Assembly (NCBI GenBank): GCA_963829055.1
Contig: CAWHHI010000016.1
Span: 576,001-640,000, forward strand
DNA from: an uncultured Gemmatimonadaceae bacterium
Lineage (GTDB): Bacteria; Gemmatimonadota; Gemmatimonadetes; Gemmatimonadales; Gemmatimonadaceae
Length of the DNA stretch: 64,000 nt
Reading direction: 5' to 3'
Shown: positions 2,783 through 63,127 of the stretch, piece after piece
How positions within the stretch are numbered: position 1 is the first letter of the stretch
Layout: the number at the start of each line of letters is the position of its first letter
Program-made: the position numbers and the translations under genes
Notes under the pieces: model-generated
Told to the model about the DNA's origin: nothing
Database searches by the model: none
The model's input: only the letters and a program-made list of their open reading frames with translations

Positions 2783-4397
2783 GGCCTAACGCGGCCGCCG
2801 ACGGGCCAGCGGTCGCGCTCTCCGCCGTCCTCACACCGACCAGGTCACGCGCATGGTCACGGGCGCCTTCGAGCATGCGGTCCGTGATGACGCGCCCGTG
2901 GCGCGCGAGGAACGGAAGCAGGTTGAGCGCCCGCTCCTGTCGCGAGCCTAACGGGAAGAGCGAGCCGCGCGCGGTACCGATCTGCGTCATGGTCTCGTCG
3001 CTCCGGCGCTTGGCCGCGGCGACGATGCGCCGGTGCAAGCGATCGAGGCGATGTTGCATCGAACGCTGCGCACCGGCCACGACCTCGGGTGGTAGCGGCA
3101 GGCCGCTGCCCTCGGTCGCATCGCGGAGCGCCTCGGATCGCGCATCGAGCTCTGTCCGTAACTGGGCGAACGCGCGAGAAAGCTCTGGCGGAATCGACTC
3201 CGTCGCGAGCCGCCCCTCGGCGCGATGGGGATCCGCCAACTCCTGCTCATCGATACCGAGGCGAGCAAGAATGCGCGCGACGTGCGGCTCGATGATGGTC
3301 GTCGACCATCGGGGCACCGCGAGCGGTGGCGCCAGCGACAGCGCCGTCGCGACGGCCGACACCTGCGCGAAATACGCGAACTCACCGGGACCAGCCACGT
3401 AGGCCACCGTCGGAAACAGCGCGCGCTCGATGACGGGCCGCAGCAGTACGTTAGGCGAGAGCACCGTCGCGCTGCCGGCGCCATCCCCGACCGATGCCGC
3501 GACAGCCGCCGCCTCGGTGAGCGGAACGCGCCGTTTGTCAGGCGTTCCGGCTGGTCGCTCGAACACGAGCGACAGCCCCTCGACCTCGGTGACCTGCACC
3601 TGGTAGCCGGCGGATACGATCGCGGCGTCTCGATCGCGGAGCGCCTGCGCCACGTCTCCACTGCGGTCGAGCGCGCGCACGAGAAACGGTCGCGCCGCCG
3701 ACGTCACGCTCGCATGGGCGGCGTCGAGTACCGCGATGCCGAGTGGTTCGAAGAGCTCACGCAGCAGCTGCAGGTACGCGCCTCCAACGGTCGCGCCGAG
3801 CCGATACGCGGTTCGCGCCGCGCGCAGCGGGCGCTCGTCGACGGTCGTGCCGCACGCTCGCTCGAGCGCCGCCAGCGCCGCGGCGGGATCAGTAAGCGGC
3901 ATCTCGGCCATCGGACGCCCCAGCGCAGCGCCCGGGGCGACCGACAACCGCTCCGCGCCGCCTGGAACGGCGATCGCTGTCCACGCGGCCTCGGCGAAAT
4001 CTGCGTCGTCGTTCGCGGCCCAGAACACGGGCGCCGCCGGAGTGCCTGTGGCGGCTTCGATTTCGTCGGCCAGCGCGAGCGCGCTCAGCGCTTTGGACCA
4101 GGTGTAGATCGGTCCGCCGAAGAGGCCCGGCTGTTGACCGGTCGTCACGACGACGCCCCGCCCCTTCGCGACACGCTCGAGGCGCGCCGCCGCCGCGCCC
4201 GTCGCGGCGAACGCCGGTGCGAGCGCGCCGAGCCAATCCCTGTCGCTCGTGCTCGCGCGCACCGCTTCGGCACGTGCCGTCCACCCCGCCACCGACGTCG
4301 GACGAGCCACATACCAGTCGCCAAGTCGGCCTTCGATGCCGGCGCGTGCGAGCGGTGAGCCGCCGAGCGGCTCGGTGCGGACGATAGGCTCACTCAT
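2775..4397 (-). CDS. bshC: Bacillithiol biosynthesis cysteine-adding enzyme BshC
   Basis: 540 aa; VVTTGQQPGLFGGPIYT, PVFWAANDDADFAE, SPNVLLRP, YVAGPGEFAYFAQ, QERALN motifs. Confidence 0.9.
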   Translation of the reverse strand: MSEPIVRTEPLGGSPLARAGIEGRLGDWYVARPTSVAGWTARAEAVRASTSDRDWLGALAPAFAATGAAAARLERVAKGRGVVVTTGQQPGLFGGPIYTWSKALSALALADEIEAATGTPAAPVFWAANDDADFAEAAWTAIAVPGGAERLSVAPGAALGRPMAEMPLTDPAAALAALERACGTTVDERPLRAARTAYRLGATVGGAYLQLLRELFEPLGIAVLDAAHASVTSAARPFLVRALDRSGDVAQALRDRDAAIVSAGYQVQVTEVEGLSLVFERPAGTPDKRRVPLTEAAAVAASVGDGAGSATVLSPNVLLRPVIERALFPTVAYVAGPGEFAYFAQVSAVATALSLAPPLAVPRWSTTIIEPHVARILARLGIDEQELADPHRAEGRLATESIPPELSRAFAQLRTELDARSEALRDATEGSGLPLPPEVVAGAQRSMQHRLDRLHRRIVAAAKRRSDETMTQIGTARGSLFPLGSRQERALNLLPFLARHGRVITDRMLEGARDHARDLVGVRTAESATAGPSAAALGRG

Positions 4398-4442
4398 GCC
4401 TGATCAGGCCCCCGGTCACGTCGCGACAGCCAGCGTTAGGCA

Positions 4443-4904
4443 TCATTTGTGGTAGGGCTCTCCGCGCACGATCGTCCCCGCCCGGTACAGCTGCTCGGCG
4501 AGAACGAGCCGCGCGAGCTCGTGCGGCAACGTCCAGGAAGAAAACGAGACGCGCGCAGCGGCACGCTCGGTAAGATCGTCAGCCAGCCCGTGCGCGCCTC
4601 CGATCACGAAGGCCACGTCGCTCGCGGACTCGCGCAGCCGTTGCACCCAGGCCGCGAACTCCGGCGACGATACCCGTCGTCCGCTGACATCGCAGGCGAT
4701 GACCTGAGCGCCACCGACAGCGTGGGCGAGGCGCTCCCCCTCGCGTTTGCGCACGAGGTCCGTGTTCGCGGCGCGCACGGGTTCGTCCTTCACCTCGAAC
4801 ACGTGAAGAGGCCAGTAGCGTCGCGCACGCTCCTCGTAGTCATGGATCGCCGCGGCGAGCGGCTCGTTCCTCGGCTTGCCGACCACGGCGACGATCAGGC
4901 GCAT
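4443..4904 (-). CDS. rlmH: 23S rRNA pseudouridine-1915 N3-methyltransferase
   Basis: 153 aa; FVIGGAHG, TLPHELARLVLAEQLYRA..I..GEPYHK. Confidence 0.95.
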   Translation of the reverse strand: MRLIVAVVGKPRNEPLAAAIHDYEERARRYWPLHVFEVKDEPVRAANTDLVRKREGERLAHAVGGAQVIACDVSGRRVSSPEFAAWVQRLRESASDVAFVIGGAHGLADDLTERAAARVSFSSWTLPHELARLVLAEQLYRAGTIVRGEPYHK

Positions 4905-4959
4905 GAACGGACACGATGGTGGCGGGCGCCATCAACAGGACGCCCGCCGCCCGTCGTTG

Positions 4960-7997: not shown

Positions 7998-9106
7998 ACT
8001 GCGAGCTCACTCGCGATCGCTGCGACGCGCTCGGCCGCTCCTGGTGTGCCGAGCTTCGACCGCACGTCGGCCAGGCCCTCGAGCATCGCGCCGCGACGCG
8101 GATCGTCATGGTCGAGCAACGGCTGCAGCGTCTCTGCGACGCGTTCGGGTACGACGGCATCCTGTACGAATTCCGGAGCGACTTCGCGCCCCGCAACGAC
8201 GTTCACCAGTCCGATGCGTGGGATCTTCACGACTCGGCGCGCGATCGCGTACGTCCATGGACTCGTCTTGTAAGCGACGACCAGCGGACACCCCGCCACG
8301 GCCGCCTCGAGTGTCGTCGTGCCGCTCTTGCAGAGCGCCGCGTCCGCTGCGCGCAGCACGGTGAACGATGCGGACGGCACACGGGGATACGGGCACCGCG
8401 CGGGATCGATGGTCACGGTGGACGCGGCGCTGACGATGACGCGTAGACCTGGACGCTTCCGTTCGAGAATCTGCGCCGTGCGCACGAAGTCATCGAGGTG
8501 TCGGTGAATCTCCTGCGCGCGACTGCCAGGAAACAACGCCAGTACCTCGTCGGACTCCTTGAGTCCGAGCATGCGCCGCGCCTCCGCGCGCTCGGGCATT
8601 TCACCGATGCGATCCAGCAACGGATGACCGACGAACGTAGCGTTGATTCCGTGCGAGCGCAGCAGCGATTCCTCGAACGGCAGGATCGGTGCGGCGCGCG
8701 TCACTATCTTCGACAGCTCGGCGAGCCGGCCCGCACCCCACGCCCACACCTGCGGCGTGATGTAGTAGAGCACCGGAACGCCCGCGGCCGCCGCGGCCGC
8801 CGCGAGCTTCATGTTGAAGCCCGGATAGTCGATGACCACGAGCAAGGCGACCGTACCCGATCGCAGCCGGCGCTTGAGCGACGACAACAACGCGTAGTGT
8901 CGAGGCACCTGCCTAACGACTTCGACGAAGCCCATCACCGCCATGCGATCGGACCGCTCGATCAGCGTGACGCCGGCGTTCTCCATGCGCGAGCCTCCGA
9001 TGCCGGTCAGCGCGAGGTCGGGACGCATGCGCTTCAACGCGGCCGCGAAACCGGACGCGTGAAGATCGCCGGACGCTTCCCCGGCGATGATGAGCACTTC
9101 ACGCAC
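7994..9106 (-). CDS. lpxB: Lipid-A-disaccharide synthase
   Basis: IIAGEASGDLH, IDYPGFN, PQVWAW, FVGHPL, PGSR, SGTTTLE; GTG start at 9106 overlaps the upstream stop. Confidence 0.95.
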   Translation of the reverse strand: MREVLIIAGEASGDLHASGFAAALKRMRPDLALTGIGGSRMENAGVTLIERSDRMAVMGFVEVVRQVPRHYALLSSLKRRLRSGTVALLVVIDYPGFNMKLAAAAAAAGVPVLYYITPQVWAWGAGRLAELSKIVTRAAPILPFEESLLRSHGINATFVGHPLLDRIGEMPERAEARRMLGLKESDEVLALFPGSRAQEIHRHLDDFVRTAQILERKRPGLRVIVSAASTVTIDPARCPYPRVPSASFTVLRAADAALCKSGTTTLEAAVAGCPLVVAYKTSPWTYAIARRVVKIPRIGLVNVVAGREVAPEFVQDAVVPERVAETLQPLLDHDDPRRGAMLEGLADVRSKLGTPGAAERVAAIASELAV

Positions 9107-10132
9107 GCGCGACCGTACCTGCGTCCGCCGCGGCTCCTGTGCGGCCCAAGCCAGAAAGCGACGGCAGCGTGCGCTCGATCTCGCTGACGATGCGTAGCGC
9201 GACTGCCAACGCCTCTCGGCCATCCTGTCCCGTCACGACGACCGGCTGCTCACCCCGCACCGCGGCGATGAAGCTCTCGAACTCCAGTCGGAGCGGCTCG
9301 CCCTCCGGCGCTTCGAGCGGAATACGCTCGACGAACGCTTCCAGCGCGAGTGGGCCTTTCGCGAGTTGAGCAAGATCGAGGTCACCACGAAGCCGGTAGA
9401 ACTCACCGTCGCCCGCCGCGAGGTCGAGCGAGATGTATCCGCTCTGCTGGAAGATGCGAACCTTCCGCATGCGCTCGCGCGACACGCGACTCGACGTGAT
9501 GTTCGCGACGACGCCCGAGTCGAACGAGATGCGCGCATTCGCAATGTCCACGAACGGCGTCAGCACCGGCACACCGACCGCCGCGACATCGGCGACGTGA
9601 CTCCCGACCAGCGTCAGGACGAGATCGATGTCGTGAATCATGAGATCCAGCACGACCGCGACGTCCGAGCCGCGCGGGTTGAACGGCGCGAGTCGGTCGC
9701 TGTCGATGAATCGTGGCGCCTCGACGAATGGCAGCGCCGCACGCACCGCACGGTTGAATCGCTCGACGTGGCCGGTCTGCACGATGGCCCCTGTCCGCTC
9801 GGCGATCGCCGAGCAATTCGTCCGCTTCCGCGAGCGTCGTCGCGATGGGCTTTTCGATGAGCAGGTGACGCCCTTTCTCGAGCGCCACCTTCGCGACGGC
9901 GTAGTGCGCCGGCGTCGGCACGGCGATCGTGAGCGCATCGCACGCATCGACGAGTGCCTCGACGGTGTCGAATGCGGGCACGTTCAACTCGCTCGCGACC
10001 TGCTGCGGCGCGCTCGGGTCGCGCGTCGTGGAAGCCGACGAGCGTCGCGCCCTCGACATCTCTGAACAGGCGGACGTGGTGGTAGCCTAACGCCCCCGCG
10101 CCGATGACGCCGACCCGCACCGGCGCCGTCAA
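9099..10132 (-). CDS. Gfo/Idh/MocA oxidoreductase (GnnA-like); frameshifts ~10010 and ~9810
   Basis: GVIGAGALGYHH, LLIEKPIA, GHVERFN, VVLDLMIHDID spread across three frames. Confidence 0.85.
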
Positions 10133-10902
10133 AACCCGACCCCGCGCTGACTCTCCTCGATGAACTGCAGGAAGTATTCGACTTCGGGCAGCGGCTGAAG
10201 CTCCGACCGCGCTCGCTCCATCGCCTGGGAGACGTTGAGCTCCGAGCGGAAGAAAAGTCGATACGCGCGCTTGAGCTCACGGACGGTCTCGTCGGCGAAC
10301 CCGCTGCGCTGCAGACCGACGCTGTTCAGCCCGTAGAGCTTTACCGGGTTACCGACCGCCTTGATGAACGGCGGAACGTCCTTCGCGACGCGCGACATTC
10401 CACCAACGAAGCTATGACGTCCGATCTTCACGAACTGATGCGCTGCGGACAGCCCCGATAGAATCGCGCGATCCTCGACGGTGACGTGGCCGGCGAGCTG
10501 CGTGCCGTTCGAGATGATCACGCCGTCGCCCACGTGACAGTCGTGCGCGAGGTGCACGTACGACATGAGGAAGCATCCCTTCCCCACGCTCGTCTTGAAC
10601 GACTGAGCGGTGCCGCGGTTGATCGTCGAGTACTCGCGAATCCGCGTGCCGTCGCCGATCTCGACCCACGTCTCCTCACCCTTGAACTTGAGATCCTGGG
10701 GATCGCCGCCGAGAATGGTCCCGATGCCGACGCTGACGTTGGTGCCGAGCCTAACGTTTTTCTCGAGGACGGTGCGCGCGTCGAGCGTACAGCCGTCGCC
10801 GATGAAGCAGCTCTCACCGACGATCGCGTACGGTCCAATCGTGACGTTGTCGCCGATCTCGGCGCGCGGTGACACGATGGCCGTCGGATGGATCCCGGGC
10901 AT
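10129..10902 (-). CDS. lpxA: UDP-N-acetylglucosamine O-acyltransferase
   Basis: IHPTAIV, hexapeptide repeats, PQDLKF, IREYSTINRGT, HLAHDC, GLNSVGLQR. Confidence 0.95.
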   Translation of the reverse strand: MPGIHPTAIVSPRAEIGDNVTIGPYAIVGESCFIGDGCTLDARTVLEKNVRLGTNVSVGIGTILGGDPQDLKFKGEETWVEIGDGTRIREYSTINRGTAQSFKTSVGKGCFLMSYVHLAHDCHVGDGVIISNGTQLAGHVTVEDRAILSGLSAAHQFVKIGRHSFVGGMSRVAKDVPPFIKAVGNPVKLYGLNSVGLQRSGFADETVRELKRAYRLFFRSELNVSQAMERARSELQPLPEVEYFLQFIEESQRGVGF

Positions 10903-12193: not shown

Positions 12194-13251
12194 TCGCGCT
12201 CCACCAGGCGTTCGAGCTTCTTGATGATGTCGGCCAGACGCAGCACGGCGGCGCTAGCCCGGAGCGACTGCCGATGCGGACGCGCCGGGTAGCCGGACCA
12301 GGTCTCGCCCGGCGGCACATCGCCGAACACGCCCGCCTGCCCAGCTATCTGCGCGCGCGCCCCAATCGTGATGTGACCGCCGAGTCCCGCCTGTCCCGCA
12401 ATGACGGCCCCGTCTTCCACGCGGGCGGAGCCGGCGATACCGACCTGCGCCAGGATGAGGCACAACCGGCCGATGCGCACGTTATGCGCGATGTGCACGA
12501 GGTTGTCGATCTTGGTCCCCGCACCAATCACCGTGTCATCGACGCTGCCACGATCGATCGTCGTGTTGGCGCCGATTTCGACGTCGTCCTCGATGATGCA
12601 ACGACCGACGTGCGGAATCTTCTCGTGCGCCGCGTTGCGAAACACGTAGCCGAAACCATCGCTCCCGAGTCTCACGCCGGCATGAACCACGACACGGTTG
12701 CCGAGCGTCGTGCCACTGTACAGAGTGGCGGACGGGAACACGCGGCTGTCGGTGCCGACCACCACGCCCGCGCCGACAGAGACGTGTGCCTCGATCCAGC
12801 TCCGGTCGCCGATCGCCGCGCCGTCCGCAATGACGGCATACGGACCGATCGTCACGTCGTTGCCTAACGTGACGCCACGACCGAGGCGCGCCGTCGCATG
12901 CACCCCGGGCTCGCGGGCCGGAGATCTGTACAGGCGTGGCAGCACCGCGAGCATCGCATCGTGCGGGCGATCGACCACGATCCGCGCAGCCGCCGTCGTC
13001 GCGAGCTCGGCGAATTCCGGCGCGATGAGCACGACGCTCGCCCGCGTTCGCTCGTACATCGGTGCATAACGCGCTTTCGCGAGAAAGCTCAGGTCTGTGT
13101 TCGTCGCGCGATCGAGCGGCGCCATGGCACGTACTTCGGCCGCGCCATCGCCCGTCACCACGCCGCCCACGAGGCCCGCAATGTCCGAAGCGGTGAGAGT
13201 GCGAACACCCTCACCGCTCGTCGATCGTTCAACCTGCTGCGACGCTGCCAC
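12190..13251 (-). CDS. lpxD: UDP-3-O-acylglucosamine N-acyltransferase
   Basis: Hexapeptide repeats, [32 protein letters not shown]; start approximate. Confidence 0.93.
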
Positions 13252-13904: not shown

Positions 13905-16339
13905 TTAGAACAGCTGACCGAGTCGGAAGTGAAGAATCCACTTCGGGTCCGGACGTCCGAACTTGTCCAGACGATCGAAGCCGTAGCCGTAGTCGAGCCC
14001 GAGTGGCCCGAGCGGGGTGACGGTCGAAACACCGATGCCCGCACCGCGGAAGAGCCGCGTGGGGTCGAACTGGCCGGCCTTCCTGTACAGGTTGCCGACG
14101 TCGTAGAACAGATTCCCGTAGAGCGACTGGTTCACGCGAAGTCCGAGTTCCGCCGTGCCGTTGAAGAACGCTTTGCCGAACGACAAGCGCGTGGCGTTGA
14201 AGTTGTCGGTACCGGTGACGTAGCCACGGGGCGAGATCGAGAACTCCTGGTAGCCGCGCAACTGCTCGCCGTACTGTACGCCGCCCATGGCGAACTCCTG
14301 CGAGAAGAAGAACGGACCCGTGTTCCCGCTGACCATACCCGCGCGAGCCGTAAGCCCGAGCACGAACTTCAACGGTTGCGAACCGGCGGCCTTGCCGCCG
14401 ATCTGGCCGAGCGGCGCGTAGGCGCGGCTCTCCGCGCGGTACTGCTGGAATCTGTACGTGCCGCCTAACGGCCCACCCGACAGCTGCGCCGAGATGCTCT
14501 GCATCCCGCCAGACGTCGCGAACGGCATGTCGGCTCGCGTGTCGTGCGCCAGGGTCGAGCCGACCGTCGAGCGGTACGTGCTGTTGCCGTAGATGCTGGA
14601 TTGTTCGCCGAGCAGGCCGCTCGTGCCGAAGCGTCACGACTTCCGCACCATAGTTGAGAGCGGATTCGCGAGTACGGTGACCGCGGAACCGGGAAACCAA
14701 CCTCGAACGATCCACCGGTTCGCAGGCTACGACCCAGGTCGGCGACGGTGTAACGCGCCTGCGTCCGATAGGCCGAGACCGTCCCCGAGAAACGCGTCTG
14801 GCGGATAGCCGGGTCGCTATACGAGAGGTTGAAGTCGTTCACGTATCGGCCGAACTGCCACTGCAGCGCTCCGCGCTTGCACCGGCCAAACAGGTTCGGC
14901 TGGTCGAGGCCGATGAAGCCACCGACACCGAGCCCCTGTCCCACCGATGCACCGAAGTTGACGTTGCCGGTTCGCTTCTCTTTCACGTTGAAGATCACGT
15001 CCACGTCGCCCTGTTCGTTGGCAGGACGGGTGTCGGGCGGGGACACCGGCGTCTCGAAGAATCCGAGATTGCCGATGCTCTGCCAGCTGCGGATCAGGCG
15101 GTCCTGGTTGTACACGTCGCCGGGAATAATCACGAGTTGGTCGCGAATGCACGACTCTACCGTGTAGTCGTTCCCGACGATCTCGATGCGATTGATGATG
15201 GCGGGCGCTTTCTCGTCGATCACCCAACGGAGATCCACCACGTGCTGCGACGTATCCGACGTCACTCGCCGATCGACGACGGGCCGAAGGTCAGCGTAGA
15301 TGTACCCCTCGTTCCGATAGGCATTCTGCAGGCTGCTGAATGCTTGCTCCCACCGGTCCTTGTCGAACACGCCCTTCGGCGTTGGATCGGACGAAAGGCC
15401 GATACTCGACGTTACGACGCTTGTGATCGATCTCGTGTACTCGTTGAAGGGGTAGAAACGCATAACCTCTTCGGTCGAGAACCGCTTGTTCCCTTCGGCC
15501 TCGAATCGACCAACACGGTATTGCGGACCTTCGGAGACTGTGATCTCGAGGAGCGCTTTGCCGTTCTCGCGATCCACGATCATCGTGTCGCGGACGACTT
15601 GGAAGTCAATGTATCCGCGTTTGCCATAGAGCGCCGGCAGACGATCGCCGAGGTCGCCGGCGAATGTGTCCTCGTCGAACGCGCCCTTTCGGAACCAGAG
15701 GAAGCCCTCCGGCTTGGTCTTCATCGCGCCGACGATCTCGCCGTCGGAAACCTTCTTGTTGCCGATGATCCGAACGCCGGAAACGGCGACTCGACGCCCC
15801 TCGTCGACCTTGAACGTCAGCCGGATCTGGCCGCCGACGAACGTCGTCTCGGGTTTCACGCGCGCGAGATAGTACCCATGCGCTTCGTAGAGCGAATCGA
15901 TGCGCTCCACCGCGCGGGTAACCAGCGCGGGGTTGAGCGGACGGGCTTCGGGAATCTCGACGCGGTCACGGACCGACTTCTTCGAGACCCGGTCCACGCC
16001 TTCGATGCGAACGTCGGAGAGCACCGGCCGCTCCTTGACCGTGACAGCAACGACCGTCCGCGTGCCCGCTCCGGCAGCAGGGCTACACGTGATTTTCACG
16101 TCATCGAACTGACCGGTCGCGAAGATATTGCGAATGGCACGCTGGATGTCGCGGTAATTCAGGGTGGCGCCGGCTACGAGCCCTGCGTCACCTCGAATTG
16201 TCGCTTCGTCAACGTGTTCGTTGCCGCGAACCGCAATCGAATCCGGTACGGCGCAACTTCCAAGGGGTGTGGTGTCTTGCGCAAGCGCAGAAGCGCTCGC
16301 CGCTGCCAGACACAGCAGCACGAGAGGCAATCGGGACAT
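13905..16339 (-). CDS. bamA: Outer membrane protein assembly factor BamA; frameshift(s) ~14560-14670
   Basis: Signal peptide, POTRA repeats, VKEKRTG, QPNLFGR, LRGY loop, [12 protein letters not shown], terminal F. Confidence 0.93.
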
Positions 16340-21248: not shown

Positions 21249-23980
<2,732 letters not shown>

Positions 23981-34130: not shown

Positions 34131-35675
<1,545 letters not shown>

Positions 35676-37274: not shown

Positions 37275-37382
37275 AAAATAACTTTCGCGAAAGCCACGTG
37301 CCGTTCGTGACCGAAGTGCCTAACGCCAGCCGTGCGCCATCGCTTCACACCAGAGGTACCCGTCACGCCAAACATCAACAGG

Positions 37383-43397: not shown

Positions 43398-44461
43398 CGG
43401 TCCAGTATGCCTAACGCAGCGGCACGGTCGCGAGCACTCGGGGTGAGCAGCGCATCGGCCGGTACGCGACCGCCGGTGCGGGCGAGTCGGATAACGTCGC
43501 GCTCCGTCACGAGCGGACGTTTTCGTTGAGTCGCCGAACGCCAGGCGATGATGCTCGCCGTATCGCCAGTCCTGACCCCGGCCGCACGCGCTTCGTCGAC
43601 ATCGAGGTGCAGCTCGCTCGCGTGGCCTTCGCCGGAGCGGACCAGCACCGTCATGGAACGTGGCGGCTCGCGCCCCGTCGCCGCATCGGACGTCCACCTC
43701 GGCGCCATTGGCCAAGCCCCAACGGTGCGCGTCGGTCGGGGCGCAGATGCAGGTGACGGGCGGCGATGATGACGCCGCGACGCAGGTCGACGCGTCCGGC
43801 TGGACCAACCAGCGTCACTCCACCCACCGAGGTGTCGAGGGAGCCGCTGGCGGCGACGGGCGCCTCGATGCCCAACAATCCGGCGTCGGATAGCGCGATT
43901 TCTAGCTGAGTGTCGCTTCGTGCCGGACCGACGACGCGCACGGCCTGTAGCTTCCCGTTGGGCCCCTCAATGTCGAGCGACTGGGTGGCGGCGAACTGGC
44001 CCGGCTGCGTCAACTCCCGCGCGACGGTCAATGGGGTTCCGCCGAACAGGGTCTGCACGTCGGCCCGCGACAGGTGCACGTGTCGGTTGGATACGCCGAT
44101 GCGCACGTCGATCGACGGGGCGTCGCAGCACGCGTTCGCGTTAGGCGTGCCTCGGCACCACGGGCGGTTGCGCTCAGGCGGCGGGCCTTTGCCGGCGGCG
44201 GCCGCCCGCGTCACACGCGTCAGCTCGCGGTGGACGTCCGAAAACGCGGACCGTCTCGTGACGCGCGACGGAGCGACGCCAGCCAGATCCTGTGCCGCAC
44301 CCGACCAGACTGGCGGGGTACCACCCCGTTCCGGCGGCGCGGGGCGCACGGGTGACGGTAACCATGTGGCTGCCCGTTCACCGGACGTACGCGTTGCCCA
44401 CCTGTTCGAGGAGTGCGCGAGCGATCAGCTCCGCCAGCCGGTCCAGCTCTGCGTCCGTCAC
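43394..44461 (-). CDS. pduL: PduL-type phosphate acyltransferase with N-terminal encapsulation peptide and C-terminal extension; apparent frameshifts ~44390, ~43745, ~43650
   Basis: IGVSNRHVHLS, LTQPGQFAA, VRVVGPAR, QLEIA, GVIIAARHLHL, ELHLDVDEA; GTG 44461 gives MTDAELDRLAELIARALLEQ. Confidence 0.88.
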
Positions 44462-49203: not shown

Positions 49204-50241
49204 TCACCCAAGCACAATCGCGGTCTCACCTTTCGGCAGCACCTCTCCGACCTCAGCGGCACGCGGGACGCGTGCAAGATAGTCAGCCACGCGCGACGAG
49301 GGCACCGCCACGAGCAGCCCGCCCGACGTCTGAGGGTCGGTCAGCAGCGCACGGTCGGCCTCGCTCGCGACGCCCCACGTTACGAGCGGCTGCACGTAAT
49401 CGAGGTTTCTGCTCCCGCCGCCGGGTCGTGACCCACCGAGCCATGCCTCCCGCGCACCAGGGATGACCGGCACGTCGTGAACGCGGATGTAGAGCGTGAC
49501 GTCACTTGCGCGGGCAATGTGCGACGCGTGGCCGAGTAGCCCAAATCCCGTAATGTCGGTGGCGCAGCGGGAGCCAACGTCGAGAGCAACGCGACTGGGC
49601 TCCGCGTTCAACTCGCGCATGAGCGTGATCATCGCCAGCGTCGTGGCGGGGTCGAGCGTCCCTTTCTTCAACGATGTGGCCAGGATGCCGTTGCCTAACG
49701 GCTTCGTGAGGACGAGACGGTCGCCGGGCCGCGCACCCGCGTTGGTCAGCATCGTCCGCGGGTCAATGCGGCCGGTGACGGCGAGCCCGAACTTGATCTC
49801 GTCATCGACGACGGTGTGTCCGCCGATCACGTGCGCGCCTGCTTCGTGGACCTTGTCCTGTCCTCCGCGCAGGATCTCCGTGAGAACCTCGATGGGCAGT
49901 TGGCCGGTCGGGAACGCGGCGATGTTCAGGACGGTCAGCGGCGTCCCACCCATGGCGTAGATGTCCGACAGCGCATTCGCCGCGGCGACCTGCCCGAACT
50001 CGTATGGGTCGTCGACGATAGGCGCGAAGAAGTCGACCGTCTGCACGATCGCGACGTCGTCGGACACGCGAAAGACCCCCGCGTCGTCGAACGTTTCATG
50101 ACCGACGAGAATGCGCGGATCCGACTTTCGCGCGAGCGGCGCGAGCGCGTGAGACAGGTCGCCCGGACCCATCTTCGACGCTCAGCCAGCGCAGCGAGAG
50201 AAATGCGTTAGGCGAAAGATCTCAGAGCGAGAATGGGACAT
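49204..50241 (-). CDS. selD: Selenophosphate synthetase containing selenocysteine (UGA at codon 20)
   Basis: ATG 50241 gives MSHSRSEIFRLTHFSRCAG-UGA-ASKMGPG, in frame with DDAGVF, QTVDFF, ANALSDIYAMGG, DITGFGLLGH, DPQTSGGLL. Confidence 0.93.
50152..50174 (-). promoter_or_regulatory. Candidate bacterial SECIS hairpin
   Basis: AGATGGGTC-CGGGC-GACCTGTCT, starting about 8 nt after the UGA at 50184-50182. Confidence 0.65.
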
Positions 50242-50735: not shown

Positions 50736-52413
50736 CTAGTCCAGCCCGACGATCGAGCCGTCGGGGCGAATGGCCATTCGCTCGGCCGCGGGCTCCTTGG
50801 GGAGCCCCGGCATGGTCATGATGTCGCCAGCCTGCGCGACAACGAAACCCGCGCCTGCAGCGGGGTACACCTCGTTCACCGTAATGCGGAAGCCGCGCGG
50901 CCGACCCAGCTTCGTCGGGTCGTCGGTCAGCGAATACTGCGTCTTCGCCATGCACACTGGCGTGTTGCCGAGACCAATGGACTCGAGATACTGGATGGAG
51001 CGGTCCGCTTTCGGGGCGTAATCGGCGCCGTCACCGCCATACACCTTCCGCACGATGGTGTCGATCTTGTCCCGAATGGGTGCGTCCGCGGAATAGATGG
51101 GCGCGAAATGGCTGCCTCCTTCACCGAGCACCGCCATGACCTCACGTGCGAGCTCGACACCGCCCTCGCCTCCTTTTTCCCACACCTCGTTCAGCGCCAC
51201 GCGCGCGCCCGTACGCTCCGCACATTCCGCGACCATCTGCAGCTCGCGATCGGTGTCGCCGGTGAATCGGTTGACGCCCACGACGACGGGGACGCCGAAT
51301 TGCCTAACGTTCTCGATGTGTCGCTCGAGATTTGGCAGCCCGCGCTCGAGCGCGCCGAGGTCCTCCGTCTTGAGCGCGTTCTTGCCGGCGCCGCCATTAA
51401 GCTTGAGCGCGCGGACGGTTGCCACGAGCACCGCGGCCTTGGGATCCAGACCGCCGAAGCGGCACTTGATGTCGAAGAACTTCTCGGCGCCGAGGTCGGA
51501 ACCGAAGCCGGCTTCGGTTACGACGACGTCTGATAGGGACAGCGCCGATCGCGTTGCGAGCACGCTGTTGCAGCCGTGCGCGATGTTGCCGAACGGCCCA
51601 GCGTGCACGAAGGCGGGACCGCCTTCCAGCGTCTGCACGAGGTTCGGCCGGATCGCATCCTTGAGCAGCATTGCCATCGCGCCGGACGCCTTGAGATCCG
51701 CTGCCCGCACCGGGCGCCGATTCGAACCAGCCGTGGACCCGACGATGATTCGACCGAGGCGCTGTTCGAGATCGGCGGCACTCGTGGCGAGCGCGACGAT
51801 CGCCATCACCTCACTCGCGGGAATGATCACCCACCGCTCTTCGCGCGCCACTCCGTTGGCGACGCCGCCGAGTCCGATGACACAATCGCGCAGCGCGCGG
51901 TCGTTCATGTCGATGGTACGCGGCCACGTGATGCGACGCGAATCGATGCCGAGCGCGTTGCCGTGGTGCAGATGGTTATCGAGCATCGCGGCGAGCAACG
52001 CGTGCGCAGTGGAAATGGCGTGGAAGTCGCCGGTGAAATGGAGATTGATATCCTCCATTGGCAACACCTGCGCGTAACCGCCACCGGCCGCGCCGCCCTT
52101 CATGCCGAACACCGGCCCGAGGCTCGGCTCACGGATGCATAACGTTGCATTCTGCCCTATACGCCGCAGCGCCTTGCGTCATTCCAACCGCGGTCGTCGT
52201 CTTCCCTTCACCTGCGACCGTCGGGTTGATACCAGTCACGAGAACGAGCTTGCCGCGCGCAGGACGCTCGGCGACATCGAGCGCGATCTTCGCCTTGTAC
52301 TTCCCGTAGAGATCCAGGTCATCGGCGCCGAGTCCGAGCTCGGCGGCAACGTCGACGATCGGCCGCAATGTCGCTTGCTGTGCGATCTCGATGTCGGACG
52401 GTACGTTCCCCAC
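50736..52413 (-). CDS. fhs: Formate--tetrahydrofolate ligase; frameshifts ~52130-52175
   Basis: [73 protein letters not shown]. Confidence 0.94.
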
Positions 52414-54377: not shown

Positions 54378-56035
54378 TAGATGCTCAGAGTCTGGGCGCC
54401 ACGCGAGCGGCTGAGCCACAGGAGATAGAACGTGCGAACGACGAAGATCGCCGTGAACAAGGACGCCGTGATGCCAGCGATCAGCGTGACCGCGAAGCCC
54501 TGGACCGGCCCGGTGCCGTACTGATAGAGCACGGCCGCGGTGAGGATGGTCGTGACACTGGTATCGATGATCGCAGTCAGCGCGTGCCGGAAGCCTTCAT
54601 CGATCGCCGTGCGTACCGTCTTGCCTCGTGCGAGCTCCTCTCGGATCCGCTCGAAGATCAGCACGTTCGCGTCCACCGCGATACCGACCGACAGCACGAA
54701 TCCAGCGAGGCCCGGCAGCGTGAGGACGGCGTTGAAATACGCCAGCATGGCCGCCGTGTAGAGGATGTACAGGCCTAACGCGATGACCGAGAGCACACCC
54801 GAGAAGCGGTAATAGACGACCATAATCGCGACCACGAGCAGCATCGCGATGACAAGCGCGCGGACGCCGTTCCGGATCGAGTCCTGACCAAGGCTCGCCC
54901 CGATGTTGCGCACCTCGGCGACCTTGAGTGGAACCGGGAGTGCGCCCGCGCGCAACACGAGCGCGAGGTCCTGCGCTTCCTGCAACGAGCGACCCTGACC
55001 CATCGTGATCTGACCGCGCGTGCCGATCGCGCTCTGGATGACAGGCGGGCGACCCATCACGCGCTGGTCGAGCACGATCGCCATGTAATCGCGAATGTGC
55101 TTGGCGGTTTCGGCGCGGAAGCGGCGTCCGCCTTCGTTGTTCAGTGTGAACTCGACGACCGTTCCCTCGAGCGGCACCTGGTTCGGCTTGGCGCCAACGA
55201 GGTATTCGCCGGTGATGATCGGCCGCGAGTCGAGCAGATAGATTGGCCGATACTGCGTGGCGCCGAGCGTCTGTGTCTCACCGCCCCAGCGCAGCACCTT
55301 ACCCGGCGGAATGGCCGACTGAATCGCCGGCATGTCCAGGTAGCGCTGCAGCGTCGGGACATCGCTCTCGGCTACAAAGTACTCGCCCGGAAACTGGCCC
55401 TGCTGGATCAGCTTCGAGAACGCGCCGCCCGTCGTCAGCGCGAGCGAGTCTTTCTTCGTCGAGTCGCCCTTCGTCTTACCAGCCGAGTCCTTCCCCGGCG
55501 TGAACAGCTCCTGAAGTCCCTTCCCGCTCTTCGCGGTGTCGCCGCCCACGACAGCCGGGCCGGCTGCGGCGCCAGCCTCCTTTAGAATCGCGTCGAACCG
55601 GGGCAGCGCCTTCTCCAGCGCCTGCGTTTCGTCGGTGATCTGGAACTCGAGGAACGCGCTCTTCTGGACAACGCCCATGGCGCGCTGCGGATCATCGATG
55701 CCGGGCAGCTCGACGATGATCTGGTTATCGCCGCTCTTCTGCACGACCGGCTCGGCGACGCCGAACTCGTCGATGCGTGTGCGGACGACCTTGATCGCAC
55801 GGTCGAGCGCCTCCGCCTTGTCGGCAATGGTGCCCTTCGACTCATCGATCTCGAGCGCGAGGTGCATGCCGCCTTGCAGATCCAACCCACGTTTGAGCGG
55901 AACCCGGGTAACGGTATCGAATACGTAGCTGTCACCGCGTTTGACTCGCTCAACGACCTTGCGCGGGAACAGCGACCATACGGACGCTGCCACGAGCGCT
56001 ACGATGAGCAGCACGCGGTACTTCAGGTTGGACAT
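54377..56035 (-). CDS. secD: Protein translocase subunit SecD
   Basis: [39 protein letters not shown]. Confidence 0.96.
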
Positions 56036-57123: not shown

Positions 57124-57972
57124 TCAGGCGTCAGGAAGCACAACGCGCGGCTGCCACGCGTCCGCAGCTCGTTCGGCGACCGCAACGAGGCGGCCGGAAC
57201 CATCCACCAGCGCCGCCATGGATGCCGGTGTCGCCTCGCCCGCGGCAGCAACCAGACGTCCCTGCCTAACGTGGCTCACATCGTCGTCCGACAGTGAGAT
57301 GGCTTGGAGATGCGGGAGCGCGTCCAGCGCCGGACGCAGGCTCGTTTCACCAGCGCGCAGCGTCTCGAGCGTGATCGCGTCGGCGACGTCGAACGATCCA
57401 CTCCGCACCCGGCGCAGAGCGCCAAGGTGCGCCGCCGACCCACTCAAGCGGCCGAGGTCGCGCGCGAGTGCGCGGATGTACGTCCCACCACCACACGTGA
57501 TCGTTGCGCGCAGGTGGTCGTCCGCCAGTTCGCGCAGCTCCCAGCCGTGTACATGGACCCGGACTGCATCGAGCGCCAACGCGACACCCCGCCGAGCTGC
57601 CGCGTATGCGCGCTGACCATCGACCTGCTTCGCCGAGTAGGCCGGTGGCACCTGGTCGATGCTACCGGTGAGCGACACGATCGCCTCACGCACGCGTGCG
57701 CGATCGGGAACCTCTGCCGTGCGGACGACGTTGCCAGTCAGGTCATCGGTGTCGGTCTCGCTGCCGAACACGATCGTCGCGTCGTACACCTTCGGCTCGC
57801 CGTCGAGATGTGGCAGCAGCCGCGTCGCGTGTCCGACGAGCAACACGAGAAGCCCCGTGGCAAAGGGATCGAGTGTACCTGCGTGACCAATCCGTCGCGT
57901 GCGGAGCGCGCGCCGCGCTTCACTCACGACGTCGTGCGACGTGATCCCGGCCGGCTTGTCGATGAGCAGCAT
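57124..57972 (-). CDS. truB: tRNA pseudouridine-55 synthase (start approximate)
   Basis: DKPAGITSHD, GHAGTLDPFATG, QVPPAYSA, GTYIRALARD. Confidence 0.95.
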   Translation of the reverse strand: MLLIDKPAGITSHDVVSEARRALRTRRIGHAGTLDPFATGLLVLLVGHATRLLPHLDGEPKVYDATIVFGSETDTDDLTGNVVRTAEVPDRARVREAIVSLTGSIDQVPPAYSAKQVDGQRAYAAARRGVALALDAVRVHVHGWELRELADDHLRATITCGGGTYIRALARDLGRLSGSAAHLGALRRVRSGSFDVADAITLETLRAGETSLRPALDALPHLQAISLSDDDVSHVRQGRLVAAAGEATPASMAALVDGSGRLVAVAERAADAWQPRVVLPDA

Positions 57973-58549: not shown

Positions 58550-61384
58550 TCAGCTCGATGCGTCCGCTACCAGCGTTCGGGCAACTTCCTCGGTGCGATA
58601 GCACTCGATGACGTCGCCGACCTTGATGTCGTTGAAGTTCTCGACGGAGATACCGCACTCGTAGCCCTTCTCGACTTCGCGGACATCATCCTTGAAGCGT
58701 CGAAGTGAACCGATCGTACCGTCGTACACCTCGACACCGTTTCGAATCACACGAACGCGTGCCTGACGAGAGATCGTCCCGTTCCGGACATAGCATCCGG
58801 CGACCATGCCGACCTTCGGAGCCTTGAAGGTCTGACGCACCTCCGCCTCGCCGAGCACGACTTCGCGCTCCTCGGGACGGAGCATGCCTTCGAGCGCCGC
58901 GCGTACGTCGTTCACGGCCTCGTAGATGACCTTGTACAGCTTGATCTCCACACCTTCGCGGTCGGCGGCCGTACGCGCGTTGTTGTCTGGACGCACGTGG
59001 AAACCGACGATGATCGCGCCAGCAGCGCGCGCGAGCAGGATGTCGCTCTCCGTCACCGCACCGACACCGCGGTGAATGACTTCGACCTGCACCTCGGCGT
59101 TGGACAGCTGAGCCAGTGCGTCGGCGAGCGCTTCCGCCGGACCGCCCTGGTCCGCCTTGATGAGCACGCGCAACGTCCGCTTCTCGCCGGCCGCGGCGTG
59201 CGACATGAAGTCTTCCAGCGTGACGGCGCTCTTGCTCGTGCGCCGGCTCTTCGCCTCGCGGTCGAGACGTTCCCGCCGCTGCGCGATGTCACGCGCCTGC
59301 GTCGCGTCGTCGACGACACGGAATTCGTCGCCAGCCATCGGCACGCCCGTTAGGCCGAGCACCTGTACCGGGATCGCCGGGCCAGCCGACTTCACCGGCT
59401 TGCCACGCTCATCGAGCAACGCACGCACGCGACCCGAGTACAGACCCACGATGAAGTCATCACCGACCTTCAGCGTGCCACTCTGTACGAGGACGGTGGC
59501 CACCGGACCCTTGCCGGCATCCAGCTGTGCTTCCACCACCGCGCCGCTCGCGTTCTTCGACGGGTTCGCCTTCAGGTCGAGAATTTCTGCCTGCAGAAGA
59601 ACCTGATCGAGCAGCTCGCCGATGCCAGTGCCCTTCTTCGCGGAAATCGGCGAGGAGAGCGTCTGACCGCCGAACGCCTCGAGCACGACGCCGTGCTGCA
59701 GGAGATCCTGCGACACCTTCGCCGGGTTCGCGTCAGGCAGATCGACCTTGTTGATGGCCACGATCAGCGGCACGCCCGCGTTCTTCGCGTGCGAGATCGC
59801 TTCGATGGTCTGCGGCATCACCGAGTCGTTCGCGGCGACGACGAGCACCACGATGTCCGTGACCTGCGCACCACGCGCACGCATGGCGGTGAACGCCTCG
59901 TGGCCTGGCGTATCGAGGAACGTGATGAGCTTGCCGTTAGGCAGCGTGACATGGTACGCGCCAATGTGCTGCGTGATGCCACCGGCCTCACCAGCCACGA
60001 CGTTGGCTTTCCGGATGTAGTCGAGCAGCGACGTCTTCCCATGGTCGACGTGACCCATGATCGTGACGATCGGCGGCCGCGGCACGAGGTCCTCGGCCTT
60101 GTCGGCCTCGGTGACCTGCCCGGCATCCGCCGCGTACTCCGCTTCGCGTACGGCCTGGAAGCCGAACTCACCAGCGATCAACTCGATCTGATCGAAGTCC
60201 ATTCGCTGGTTGATCGTCACCATGAGCCCGAGGTTCTTGAACGCGAAGCCGACGATCTGCGTCGCGGGAATCTTGAGGATCTCGGCGAGCTCGCTGACGG
60301 TGATGAATTCGTTGACGTGAACGGTTTTCCGCTCGCGTTCACGATCCGCCTCGCGCTGCGCCTCCATCTCCTCGCGCGAACCCATGTCGTCGGAGCGCCG
60401 TGGGCCGCCGCGCCGCTGCGCGGGACCGCGGAGCGCGGACATGGTCTTGAAGATGTTGGCGGACACCGCTTCCTGATCGACTGCCCCGCGCTTGCCCTTC
60501 TTGCGCCGTCCAGCCGGTTGCTGCTGTTGCTGCTGACTACCGCCACCACCACCCCCACCACCGGGTCCTCCGCCGCCACCCTGCCGCTGCTGCTGCGGGC
60601 GGTCGTCTCGACGGGTCGGCGTCATCCCGCCGCCAGGCGCCGCCGAGGCGACAGGACGCGGCGGGACAAACGGGTTGCTGCTGGCGACCGGACGCGGGCG
60701 CGGAGCGCCAGGTACGATCGGCCGCGGACGCGGCCGATCACCACCGGCCGACGCTGGCTGCGGCGGCGGCATGGACGGACGCATCGGAGCCACCGGTTGC
60801 GGCGGAGTCGGTGTGCGCTCGAAGCGCTCCGGCTCACGCGGCGGTGGCGGCTCTACCGGCGCGGCCGCGACAGGCGGGGCCGGTGGTGGTAGCGGCGGTG
60901 GCGGTGGCGCAACGTGAACCGTCTCTTCGACGACCGGTTCACTCGTGTCGACGGCTGGTGCAGTCGACACCTCGGGCTCGTGCTCGTGCTCGACGGTCGT
61001 CTCGTGATCGACCTCGGCGAGGTCGGGTGCCGCAACATCGACATCGACGTCGTCGGTTGCGATCGCCGCTTCCCCGACGACGTCGGCGGGACGTCGGCGG
61101 CGTCGGACGCCCGACGCTTCCGCGGGCACAGGGGCCGCAGGTGCGGCCGCTGCCGGCGCAGCCGCCGGCGTCCCGCGCCGGCGGCGCGCCGGCGGCGCGG
61201 TCTGCTTCTCGGCGCGGACGCGTTTCTCACGCTCCCAGCGCGCGCGAATACGCGCGACCTGGTCATCGGTGAGAAGAGTGAGATGGCTGCGCACGGGGAC
61301 GTCCATCTGACGAAGGAGGGTGATCACCTCGTCGCTGGAAACCCCGAACTCGCCTGCCATGTCGTGTACACGAAGCTTGCTCAA
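58550..61384 (-). CDS. infB: Translation initiation factor IF-2
   Basis: [26 protein letters not shown]; long Pro/Gly-rich N-terminus. Confidence 0.97.
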
Positions 61385-61393
61385 ACAGTCCTC

Positions 61394-61750
61394 CTAGCGG
61401 GCTCGACCAGAGTCCGCGGCATGCCCCTCGGCGGGGGCCGACTCGACGATGGCACGAATGCCCTTCGCGAGCTGTGGATCGACGACTCCGACGGCGGCCG
61501 TCGACTCCCGTCCTACCGCGGCGCCAAGTTCTGACGCCGAGGGTCCTTCAATCATGCGAATGTGCTTCGCCCGAAGCATCGGAACGACCTTGTTCAGGCT
61601 GTTGTGCGACGCATCAGGCGCGATCACGACGAGCTTGAGCTTTCCCCGCAGCGCTGCGTCGCGTACCTGCTGCACCCCGACAATGACCAGCCGGCCGTTC
61701 ATGCCTACTCCGACCAGGCGAAGCAGCTTGCTTGTTGTCGAGGCGTCCAT
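61394..61750 (-). CDS. L7Ae/L30e-family RNA-binding protein
   Basis: VVIAPDASHNS, ELGAAVG; position between nusA and infB. Confidence 0.85.
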   Translation of the reverse strand: MDASTTSKLLRLVGVGMNGRLVIVGVQQVRDAALRGKLKLVVIAPDASHNSLNKVVPMLRAKHIRMIEGPSASELGAAVGRESTAAVGVVDPQLAKGIRAIVESAPAEGHAADSGRAR

Positions 61751-61759
61751 CGTGTTCGT

Positions 61760-63127
61760 CTAGACCGGCGACTCGCCGCGGCGCGACGTGTCGTTGGTCC
61801 CGCCGTCGCCGTCATCGGCTCCGGCTTCTTCTCCACCTTCTTCCGTGAGTTCATCGAGCATCGTGATGATACGATCCGCCTCCTCCGGCGCGATACCTGG
61901 CAGGCGGAGCAGATCCTCGCGCTCGAGATCGATGATGTCGTTGAGCGTGCGGTAGCCGCCTTCCTCGAGCACAGCGACAGTCGCGGGCGACATGCCTTCG
62001 ATCTCCGACAGCTTGACGTCCGCGGCCGAGTCGGCCTCTTCGGGGAGCGGCGCGAACAGCGGCGCGTCACCACCACGGTCGAGCCACTCGCGACTCGAGT
62101 AGAGGTCGATCTTCCAGCCCGTCAGCTCGGAGGCGAGCCTAACGTTCTGTCCGTTGCGCCCGATCGCGAGCGACAGCTGATCCTCATCAACGACAGCCTG
62201 AATCGTCTTGGCAATCGGATCGGAGAACACGCGTGCGACGCGAGCCGGCGCGAGCGCGAGCTTCGCAAAGCGCTCGGGGTCAGCAGACCACGGCACAATG
62301 TCGATGCGCTCGCCATTGAGCTCGTTGACGACCGCTTGCACGCGCGAGCCCTTGAGCCCGACGCATGCGCCAACCGGGTCGATCGAGTCATCGCGCGAGA
62401 ACACCGCGATCTTCGTGCGGCTGCCGACCTCGCGCGCAGCGGCGCGGATGTCGACGATGTTCTGCTGGATCTCGGGGACCTCGAGCTTGAACAGTGCCTT
62501 CACAAACAGTGGGTCGCCGCGGCTCAGGATGAGGCGGGGGCCCTTGGGCGTCTCCTCGACGCGCTTGAGCACCGCACGAATGGGCTCGCCCTGGTGGAAG
62601 TGCTCGCGGTGGTTCTGCTCGCGATACGGAATGATTGCTTCCGCCTCGCGGAACTTGTTCAACATGACGACAAGCTTGCCGCGCTCGATCTGCTGAATCT
62701 CACCGCTCAGCAGGTCGCCGACACGACCCGCGAACTCGTCGCGGATCCGCGTGCGCTCGCCCTCGCGAACGCGCTGGATGATGCGCTGCTTCGCGGCTTG
62801 CACGGCCGTGCGTCCGAACTCCGCGAAGTCGACGGGGATCTCCATCATGTCGCCGACCTGGAATTCCGGGTCTTCGAAGCGGGCTTCCTCGACGCTGACC
62901 TCACGGCCGGGATCGGTGACCTCTTCAACGACCGTCTTGAGCAACACGATGCGGATCTCACCGCGATCTTCGTTGATCTCGACTTCGGCCTGTACGTTCG
63001 GCCCGTGCTTTTTCGCGAGCGCGGCATGGATGCCATCCTCGAGCAGTCCGTGTAGCTCGGACCGATCGAGTTGCTTCGAGCTCGTCAGCTCGCGAATCGC
63101 GTTCAGGATGTCAGCGGAACCGATCAT
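61760..63127 (-). CDS. nusA: Transcription factor NusA
   Basis: FGRTAVQAAKQ, LFKLEVPEI, DPVGACVG, AIGRNGQNVRLAS. Confidence 0.96.
   Translation of the reverse strand: MIGSADILNAIRELTSSKQLDRSELHGLLEDGIHAALAKKHGPNVQAEVEINEDRGEIRIVLLKTVVEEVTDPGREVSVEEARFEDPEFQVGDMMEIPVDFAEFGRTAVQAAKQRIIQRVREGERTRIRDEFAGRVGDLLSGEIQQIERGKLVVMLNKFREAEAIIPYREQNHREHFHQGEPIRAVLKRVEETPKGPRLILSRGDPLFVKALFKLEVPEIQQNIVDIRAAAREVGSRTKIAVFSRDDSIDPVGACVGLKGSRVQAVVNELNGERIDIVPWSADPERFAKLALAPARVARVFSDPIAKTIQAVVDEDQLSLAIGRNGQNVRLASELTGWKIDLYSSREWLDRGGDAPLFAPLPEEADSAADVKLSEIEGMSPATVAVLEEGGYRTLNDIIDLEREDLLRLPGIAPEEADRIITMLDELTEEGGEEAGADDGDGGTNDTSRRGESPV

Follow-up and report, generated by a model that had tools for sequence, protein, structure and literature searches.

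Hyper-abundant genome words are known from few groups, among them the DNA uptake sequences (DUS) of Neisseriaceae, the uptake signal sequences (USS) of Pasteurellaceae and the highly iterated palindrome HIP1 of cyanobacteria, and the cause of their accumulation is a long-standing question. Here we analyse a word of this kind, the octamer GCCTAACG or its reverse complement (hereafter the word), in a 64-kb stretch of the genome of an uncultured Gemmatimonadaceae bacterium (the window; positions 576,001 to 640,000 of contig C16 in the source assembly, G000) and beyond it. A preliminary description of the window had noticed the repeated octamer, had listed a Chi site, an uptake sequence, FtsK-orienting polar sequences (KOPS), a nucleoid-protein site and a HIP1-like repeat as possible analogues, and had found that it matched none of the known Chi, DUS, KOPS or HIP1 sequences; nor was it found as a described word in the literature searched. 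That search, by 8-mer, 7-mer and topic, gave one unrelated paper and no report of the word in these lineages, with subscription papers, REBASE and supplements lying mostly outside its scope.

The word resembles USS and DUS in being short, non-palindromic and orientation-neutral, in its thousands of copies, in lying within genes in permitted frames, in forming lineage dialects, in its scarcity in newly acquired DNA and in its load in temperate phages. However, it has no sequence likeness to them, it shows strong short-range self-avoidance and promoter-proximal exclusion, it is common to two unrelated phyla, it is not enriched in DNA-maintenance genes, it forms almost no inverted-pair terminators in Gemmatimonadaceae, and no ComP-family receptor was found in the genomes searched. 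With HIP1 (GCGATCGC), in the available text of the sources, it shares the character of a hyper-abundant octamer conserved beyond codon needs, whose single-mismatch variants are under weaker selection; the function of HIP1 is debated there between chromosome structure and transformation (PMC5861425; PMC13756078). Unlike HIP1, the word is neither palindromic nor self-complementary, no methyltransferase was found to track it, and its spacing signal is local (~190 bp); HIP1 has been reported without a promoter link, whereas the word avoids promoters. Like Chi and KOPS, it is an over-represented non-palindromic octamer in core DNA, but it is without replichore polarity and the source genome has separate canonical, strongly polar KOPS. 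It also equals the inverse-core/core box of local integron attC sites plus one base pair, although its thousands of chromosomal copies are single boxes in genes, independent of an integrase gene. A further parallel is Gbn of Streptomyces, a small protein that, as far as the accessible part of its report goes, recognises a short word, GATC(A/T)T, at thousands of places and mildly represses bound promoters (PMC9239103). Here the word and the phylum are different, the system is known from the DNA side alone, and the word is excluded from promoters, whereas Gbn binds many of them. Set beside these systems, the word either does not pass the tests that define DUS/USS, HIP1, Chi and KOPS or gives them no clear answer.

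The word behaves as a highly iterated, self-marking signal that is real and genome-wide. Point mutation gives rise to its sites in any frame, and neither orientation nor replichore matters to them. One site makes another within ~200-300 bp rare, promoters and the 300-450 bp that follow them are kept clear, and the sites mark long-resident DNA. The explanation that we favour, tentatively and with a little less than even confidence, is that the word is a chromosome-wide landing site for a putative, abundant, sequence-specific intracellular DNA-binding protein resembling nucleoid-associated proteins. A new DNA uptake sequence ranks as its close rival, and these two are what remains of the list in the preliminary description.

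Abundance, spacing and promoter-proximal exclusion

The source genome holds 5,004 copies of GCCTAACG in 7.78 Mb, at a density of 4.8-8.0 per 10 kb across all 20 contigs. Under an order-2 and an order-3 Markov model (observed/expected ratios of 49 and 19), no 8-mers rank above the word and its reverse complement; higher orders tell nothing, since the sub-words of the word are themselves dominated by it. Within the window, where all 28 exact copies of the preliminary description were recovered (21 on the + strand and 7 on the - strand), dinucleotide shuffles gave a mean of 1.22 copies and a maximum of 5. Our own gene calls (7,319 open reading frames (ORFs), 74% coding, which include fragments because the assembly has many one-base indels) contain 3,230 copies, compared with 88-109 after synonymous-codon shuffling, or ~32 times the codon-aware expectation. 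All six reading frames are used, with 1,293 copies read as x-Leu-Gly, 884 as Pro-Asn, 594 as x-Leu-Thr and 441 as Val-Arg; 47% of all TTA codons lie in the word, which also supplies 242 of 921 TAA and 199 of 1,888 TAG stops. When aligned to G004, a genome of the same genus at ~77% identity, 42 of 122 sites were identical, compared with 17-18% of background 8-mers, and this conservation, about twice background, means that sites are maintained yet turn over by point mutation. The six frames, the TTA share and the conservation bear out the earlier suggestion that selection acts on DNA and not on protein, which we would word as selection or drive. No clear compensatory turnover was detected (23 observed, 17.8 expected), and copies in the source genome have no flank consensus and no membership of repetitive extragenic palindromic (REP) or miniature inverted-repeat transposable elements. 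A separate REP-like palindromic repeat family, beginning GTCATTCCG, is present there in ~800 copies.

Copies of the word avoid one another. Neighbours less than 150 bp apart number 132 against 465 expected, and the pair correlation climbs from 0.15 below 25 bp to ~1 by 600 bp, with a fit of 1-1.06*exp(-d/188 bp) that is alike for same-orientation, convergent and divergent pairs; six control 8-mers of like abundance have a flat pair correlation. The source genome is almost without inverted pairs. There is no helical phasing, and in a simple Fourier test on four contigs no long-range, kb-scale period stood out. Self-avoidance is repeated in G004, with no pairs under 200 bp among 111 sites in 340 kb sampled, and in G014, from another genus, where the pair correlation is 0.12-0.48 under 200 bp (486 sites in 426 kb). 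The variants ACCTAACG, CCCTAACG, GCATAACG and GCCTAACA, over-represented 14.6, 3.3, 4.8 and 11.8 times, also avoid the word, whereas GCCGAACG, GCCTGACG and GCCTCACG do not, GCCTGACG being nonetheless 2.5-fold over-represented. An unbiased scan of 5- to 7-mers recovers the same class of variants, and the functional site can therefore be written V-C-M-T-A-A-C-R, with GCCTAACG as its best form.

The word is also kept away from promoters. Per 10 kb of the source genome, divergent spacers hold 2.3 copies, coding DNA 6.5, tandem spacers 8.7 and convergent spacers 17.7. In the first genes of divergent pairs, the peptide sites compatible with the word are written as the word in 22 of 303 and 29 of 314 cases in bases 0-300, together 51/617, against 210/916 beyond base 600 (Fisher p=1e-14), the share in successive bins from the start codon being 7, 9, 14, 21, 22 and 24%; other genes use 20-24% of compatible sites. 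This drop is seen in all four frame classes and in both orientations, and neither operon-internal genes, over their first 200 bp, nor control words show it. The first 300-450 bp of genes thus form an exclusion zone behind promoters. In G004 there are 2 copies in 39 kb of first-gene starts, and in G014 there are none in 5.4 kb of first-gene starts, 1 in 2.6 kb of divergent spacer and 3 in 10.3 kb of bases 0-300; judged by eye across the three genomes, the range of exclusion is longer where density is lower. AT-rich tracts inside genes were considered as substitute sites and set aside, as word density is only slightly lower near them, within 50 bp.

Distribution among lineages, phages and foreign DNA

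Compared across related genomes and their phages, the word is patchy among the former and carried by tailed members of the latter. Fifteen of 60 relatives have at least 100 copies per Mb and most others fewer than 20, the word-rich genomes comprising all six of the same genus (350-680 per Mb), G014 (1,247) and members of two families; four unpublished genomes (G013, G102, G140 and G216) are among the word-poor rows and no claim depends on them. A 200-genome sample of the phylum added seven further genomes with at least 100 per Mb, all within the order, and none of the 63 genomes outside the order exceeded 15 per Mb. A quick tree of the conserved methyltransferase took the place of a species tree; it has 38 rows, two of 40 having been left out as fragments, and 20 of the 60 relatives are absent from it. 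On this tree 9 changes are required to account for the high state, and well-supported branches force at least 5 of them; a count this low was obtained in 34 of 500 shuffles. Density ranges from <10 to ~1,400 per Mb among close relatives, and these differences, together with the sharing between two phyla of common soil bacteria, provide many independent contrasts for phylogenetic profiling of the responsible gene.

When all GTDB species genomes were scanned for mixed-orientation sets of three copies, a test that detects only very dense genomes, 47 stretches emerged, 25 of them from Gemmatimonadota, 20 from Verrucomicrobiota (Chthoniobacterales, Spartobacteria, Verrucomicrobiae) and 2 from Burkholderiales and Terriglobales, which with 26 and 44 copies are not word-rich genomes. 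Among the matches listed by a same-orientation scan there were otherwise one-strand arrays and repeats. In the family of G235 (Chthoniobacterales) a density of at least 30 copies per Mb is reached by 39 of 41 genomes, with a maximum of 1,430; setting aside three unpublished genomes makes this 36 of 38. Only 2 of 120 genomes sampled from the class reach that density, both from this family. The dialect here is GCCTAACGA, with 469 of 502 copies followed by A; G235 has some inverted and tandem pairs, and its convergent spacers are enriched. Samples of 20-60 kb from six family relatives contained no other dialect word of this kind. Another abundant word, GCTTCCC/GGGAAGC, occurs in G021 at ~1 per kb in the 40 kb sampled and is possibly a short tandem repeat family.

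Tailed phages carry the word in both orientations, with 26 copies in 28.5 kb in one case and 24 copies in a 50-kb integrase-bearing genome with terminal repeats in another, and further phage fragments carry it in both dialects. The word-bearing contigs are candidate phages of Gemmatimonadaceae and Chthoniobacterales. Those at host-like density are L364/L624-L626 (G400), L377/L627-L628 (G239), L513, L515, L534 and L575.

Three zones of 31-50 kb at contig ends of the source genome are without the word (C6:5440-55037, C6:592000-623330 and C11:1-46789). All three have deviant tetranucleotide profiles and two hold divergent second copies of ftsK, aroC, trp genes and folD, the duplicates of ftsK, aroC and folD being at 47-65% identity; the second ftsK was not found in four other genomes searched. 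The zones are foreign or chimeric DNA, probably chimeric joins or contamination in the assembly. A terminus domain or an occlusion-free zone is ruled out by the foreign duplicates, and dif itself sits in word-bearing DNA. Low-GC genes have 2.9 copies per 10 kb, compared with 8.4 in the highest-GC genes. As between core and acquired DNA, the word is scarce in what appears to be foreign, although that DNA may consist of assembly chimeras. The assembly also has frequent one-base insertions (57 of 69 isolated indels relative to sister genomes), and indels split many genes, leaving ORF lengths in the window unreliable. The word is also of practical use in these lineages, as a marker when genomes are binned, chimeras detected or phages assigned to hosts.

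Competing explanations for the word

On the explanation that we favour, a protein bound at the word would act on the DNA for a few hundred bases to each side and a second nearby site would for that reason add little, while a site near a promoter would be costly, or the promoter would already supply the same function. A single length scale of a few hundred bases for both saturation and the promoter gap, neutral to orientation, suits a double-strand binder. An intracellular nucleoid-type protein would explain the promoter gap directly, whereas an extracellular receptor would have no evident means of sensing promoter function. The reader may even bind DNA like a tyrosine recombinase, a speculation prompted by the identity of the word with the attC core box. 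Gbn, which in the accessible part of its report is a short-word nucleoid protein that dampens promoters, serves as a precedent (PMC9239103). If there is such a protein, the word would represent an unrecognised mode of bacterial chromosome organisation. A bolder proposal, possible but doubtful in our view, is that two unrelated, abundant soil lineages (several Gemmatimonadales genera and one Chthoniobacterales family) share a sequence-encoded chromatin-spacing code. Its reader would be a protein with a tyrosine-recombinase-type DNA preference, acquired more than once or by transfer, that binds the attC-core word at intervals of a few hundred to a few thousand bases; promoters would stay open, much like nucleosome-free regions, and the codons of host and phages would have been rewritten by it. 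Integron cassettes would then arrive already marked.

Several observations weigh against an intracellular binder, which fits Chthoniobacterales less well. G235 is nearly without self-avoidance, the pooled DNA of G385, G315 and G236 has self-avoidance confined to 30-150 bp and lacks a promoter effect, and the promoter avoidance of G235 is weak (10.6 per 10 kb against 22.5 in operon-internal genes, p=0.004, with ~13 in all other genes). In G004 and G014 the tests of first against operon-internal genes, taken alone, gave p=0.06 and 0.07. Gene starts were taken from a simple gene finder on a frameshift-rich assembly and are not mapped transcription starts, and the same pattern could result if promoter DNA stood in, weakly, for the word at an uptake receptor. 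The searches made found no reader gene: there was no histone fold in five of five genomes tested and no integron-integrase-type N-terminal domain in G010 or G235, a single HU-family gene is present in positive and negative genomes alike, and codon bias, clustered sites near promoters and genes common to the source genome and ~0.6-0.7 Mb of Chthoniobacterales DNA gave no guidance.

It is quite possible, instead, that the word is a new DNA uptake sequence, preferred by a type IV pilus/secretin receptor and spread by biased uptake and homologous recombination, in which case even spacing would arise because one site per few-hundred-base fragment suffices. This is consistent with a non-palindromic, orientation-neutral word used in all frames with graded single-mismatch variants, with the dialects GCCTAACG and GCCTAACGA, with the lack of the word in foreign DNA of the assembly, and with the inverted pairs and convergent-spacer enrichment of G235. 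The source genome has comEC, a pilin, pilB/T/C/M/N/O/Q, dprA and comM, and ComEC and pilus ATPases are present in five of five Chthoniobacterales genomes tested. In Haemophilus influenzae, according to the accessible part of the study, two uptake sequences within 100 bp add no uptake (PMC7811141), and temperate Pasteurellaceae phages accumulate USS, as far as their report is available (PMC6776037), like the tailed phages here. However, promoter exclusion that reaches 300-450 bp into genes is unexpected of an extracellular receptor, and the two phyla that use the same word have pilus proteins with no more than ~23-48% identity at the loci that were compared. The source genome is nearly without inverted pairs, and its close pairs are scarce where, in the same partial account of H. 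influenzae, 23% of USS lie within 100 bp of another (PMC7811141). There is no conservation halo around sites shared between genomes, and 20 hand-picked DNA-maintenance and competence loci are not enriched (19 copies in 43.4 kb, 4.4 per 10 kb compared with ~6.4 genome-wide). The preliminary description had pointed to comP, comEA or methyltransferase genes as possible companions of the word, and none of those tested tracks it: the ComP family (PF16732) has no match over the cut-off in 18 of 18 genomes, in a search that did not extend to ComN, and the receptor may be an unrelated one, ComEA does not follow the word and its match in the source genome is weak, and neither ComEC (59 of 61 genomes) nor a PilX-like minor pilin (50 of 61) follows it. 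If the word is an uptake signal, sequence-specific uptake extends beyond Proteobacteria; the spacing law and the promoter gap yield quantitative predictions by which such a receptor and a binder inside the cell can be told apart.

We consider it improbable that the word is the product of a methylation or repair ratchet of the sort proposed for cyanobacterial HIP1, with CCTAAC as the mark of a methyltransferase and with biased mismatch repair or methylation-dependent uptake producing and preserving the sites. In its favour, a type IIG-like adenine methyltransferase of 1,050-1,100 aa, with an SNF2 helicase after it, occurs in 58 of 61 Gemmatimonadales genomes, and CCTAAC fits what we take to be the pattern of asymmetric type IIG or BREX targets. 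The enzyme, however, is found in word-rich and word-poor genomes, with a C-terminal target region that is alike in the parts compared, and only a weak relative (24-30%) occurs in 4 of 41 genomes of the Chthoniobacterales family. The link of cyanobacterial HIP1 to methyltransferases, in the text available (PMC4390886), speaks for a ratchet. A second methyltransferase, of D12 class, was not found in G014, G010 and G033 and is present in five word-poor genomes. The HIP1-like, methyltransferase-driven repeat of the preliminary description is accordingly unsupported, as no tested methyltransferase co-occurs with the word, the other classes having been screened in the source genome only, by motif regular expression. 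A site-autonomous process does not predict self-avoidance, and assembly indels, taken as a proxy for methylation, do not cluster at the word (0 of 69). As for the type IIG-like pair itself (C8:73551-78414, L127; intact orthologue L168:555-6049), the two genes overlap, have weak DrmMI/DrmD-like matches and are nearly always single-copy, with a conserved C-terminal region; they behave as housekeeping genes do, which is unusual for the class.

Equally improbable, or slightly more so, is an integron-linked origin, in which an integron integrase or a cassette-tuned receptor acts on the attC core box genome-wide. In word-poor relatives, the copies are grouped in cassette arrays, where they form the invariant inverse-core box of attC hairpins, each opening a hairpin that is closed by a complementary box, with one small ORF between copies; of two hairpins folded, one gave z=-3.9. 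The source genome has a small integron (C20:202000-209000) with ~5 attC-like sites that begin in the same way, and the functional variant GTTATG presumably resembles the Xer half-site core. The word fits the attC core pattern RYYYAAC/GTTRRRY, as given in the accessible part of the source (PMC3053210), and only ~32 of 16,384 7-mers do so on either strand, so that a chance match is unlikely. However, integrase presence (42 of 61 genomes, many of them word-poor) does not track the word, for which reason the link may lie in the binding preference of the reader. No integrase was found in G002, G004, G010, G014, G020 or G029, although integrons assemble poorly in metagenome-assembled genomes (MAGs), and that of the source genome is without some catalytic residues. 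The dispersed chromosomal copies, besides lacking a flank consensus, have no hairpin and no cassette, and genomes of other phyla with large attC-like arrays show one-strand clusters only. A truncated integrase N-terminus lies at C4:2850-3239 of the source genome, and long chromosomal cassette arrays occur in the Gemmatimonadales genomes G039, G037, G057 and G041 (L001-L009), with 27 or more attC sites on one contig.

A Chi-like or KOPS-like polar signal is very unlikely and can be rejected. It had been suggested by an approximately 3:1 strand bias, towards the leading and coding strand, and this bias holds within the window (21:7, binomial p=0.013) but not genome-wide, where 2,457 copies are on the + strand and 2,547 on the - strand; among 108 non-overlapping 64-kb windows, 21:7 is the most extreme split and seven reach p<0.05. 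With dif and KOPS patterns that we assume to be the standard ones, a dif-like site was placed at C16:560,790, ~15 kb left of the window, and canonical KOPS, as a positive control, flip there (110 of 125 leading-oriented, 88%). Over 0.9 Mb the word is split 257:212 (55% leading) without a switch, which matches its 54% coding-strand bias, and its self-avoidance is blind to orientation. A compositional or codon artefact is hardly credible and can be ruled out, since the only point in its favour is that TA-containing words are in general odd in GC-rich DNA, synonymous shuffling removes nearly all copies in genes (3,230 against 88-109) and the majority of relatives with comparable GC content stay below 20 per Mb. 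To these last two readings jointly we would assign a very small probability.

Copies in the window and neighbouring features

The frames and codons that the preliminary description gave for copies in the window are correct, as are the positions of its nine one-mismatch copies, of which the whole window holds 58. The genes are of housekeeping type (lpx, clpC, lysS, prfB, secD, infB, nusA), and ClpC finds its best matches in two Gemmatimonadaceae MAGs, at 87% identity. The bshC gene, on the - strand, contains copies at 2784..2791 (+, Ala-Leu-Gly with TTA), 2946..2953 (+, Pro-Leu-Gly) and 3449..3456 (-, Pro-Asn frame), and an intergenic copy directly follows the rlmH stop (4434..4441, -). Among the lpx genes, copies lie inside lpxB (8911..8918, +) and lpxA (10749..10756, +), both in the Val-Arg frame, and inside lpxD (12862..12869, +, Thr-Leu-Gly); another, at 10085..10092 (+), is shortly downstream of lpxA and outside called genes, in a possible frameshift region. 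The copy at 14463..14470 (+) overlaps the TAG that closes the called bamA ORF, a gene that is probably frameshifted.

Further along, copies are found in lysS (23850..23857, +, Ala-Leu-Gly) and prfB (24313..24320, +, Val-Arg frame), followed by two outside called genes, at 26045..26052 (+) and 26156..26163 (-), which at 111 bp apart are a rare close pair, and by one in a PorV/PorQ-family gene (28898..28905, +, Ser-Leu-Gly). The rRNA operon (30491..35677, -) is without an exact copy, as had been noted, although with ~2-3 expected in 5.2 kb this is weak evidence alone. Beyond it lie a copy between two tRNA genes (37318..37325, +), two inside ORF 41657-42748 (42020..42027, +, Ser-Leu-Gly; 42626..42633, +, Ala-Leu-Gly), one inside the short ORF 43394-43654 (43409..43416, +, Ala-Leu-Gly), one shortly upstream of the called start of a phosphate propanoyltransferase gene (44139..44146, -) and one inside an acetaldehyde dehydrogenase gene (45497..45504, +, Ala-Leu-Gly). 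The selD gene contains a copy at 49693..49700 (+, Pro-Leu-Gly), and the spacer between it and a Rid-family gene another at 50206..50213 (-). The remainder are in fhs (51302..51309, +, Val-Arg frame), secD (54773..54780, +, Ala-Leu-Gly), truB (57264..57271, +, Val-Arg frame), infB (59348..59355, -, Gly-Leu-Thr with CTA; 59935..59942, -, Pro-Asn frame) and nusA (62137..62144, +, Val-Arg frame).

A distance of 15-80 kb separates dif from the rRNA operon and from many genes for translation and lipid A, and over ~0.8 Mb of C16 the core genes are 80-90% co-oriented toward the terminus; a 5S-23S-16S operon so close to the terminus is unusual. Bacterial microcompartment genes of the ethanolamine type occupy 45119-46747 of the window amid the housekeeping region, and at 49106-50172, beside selD, a tRNA-Sec overlaps the end of an ORF.

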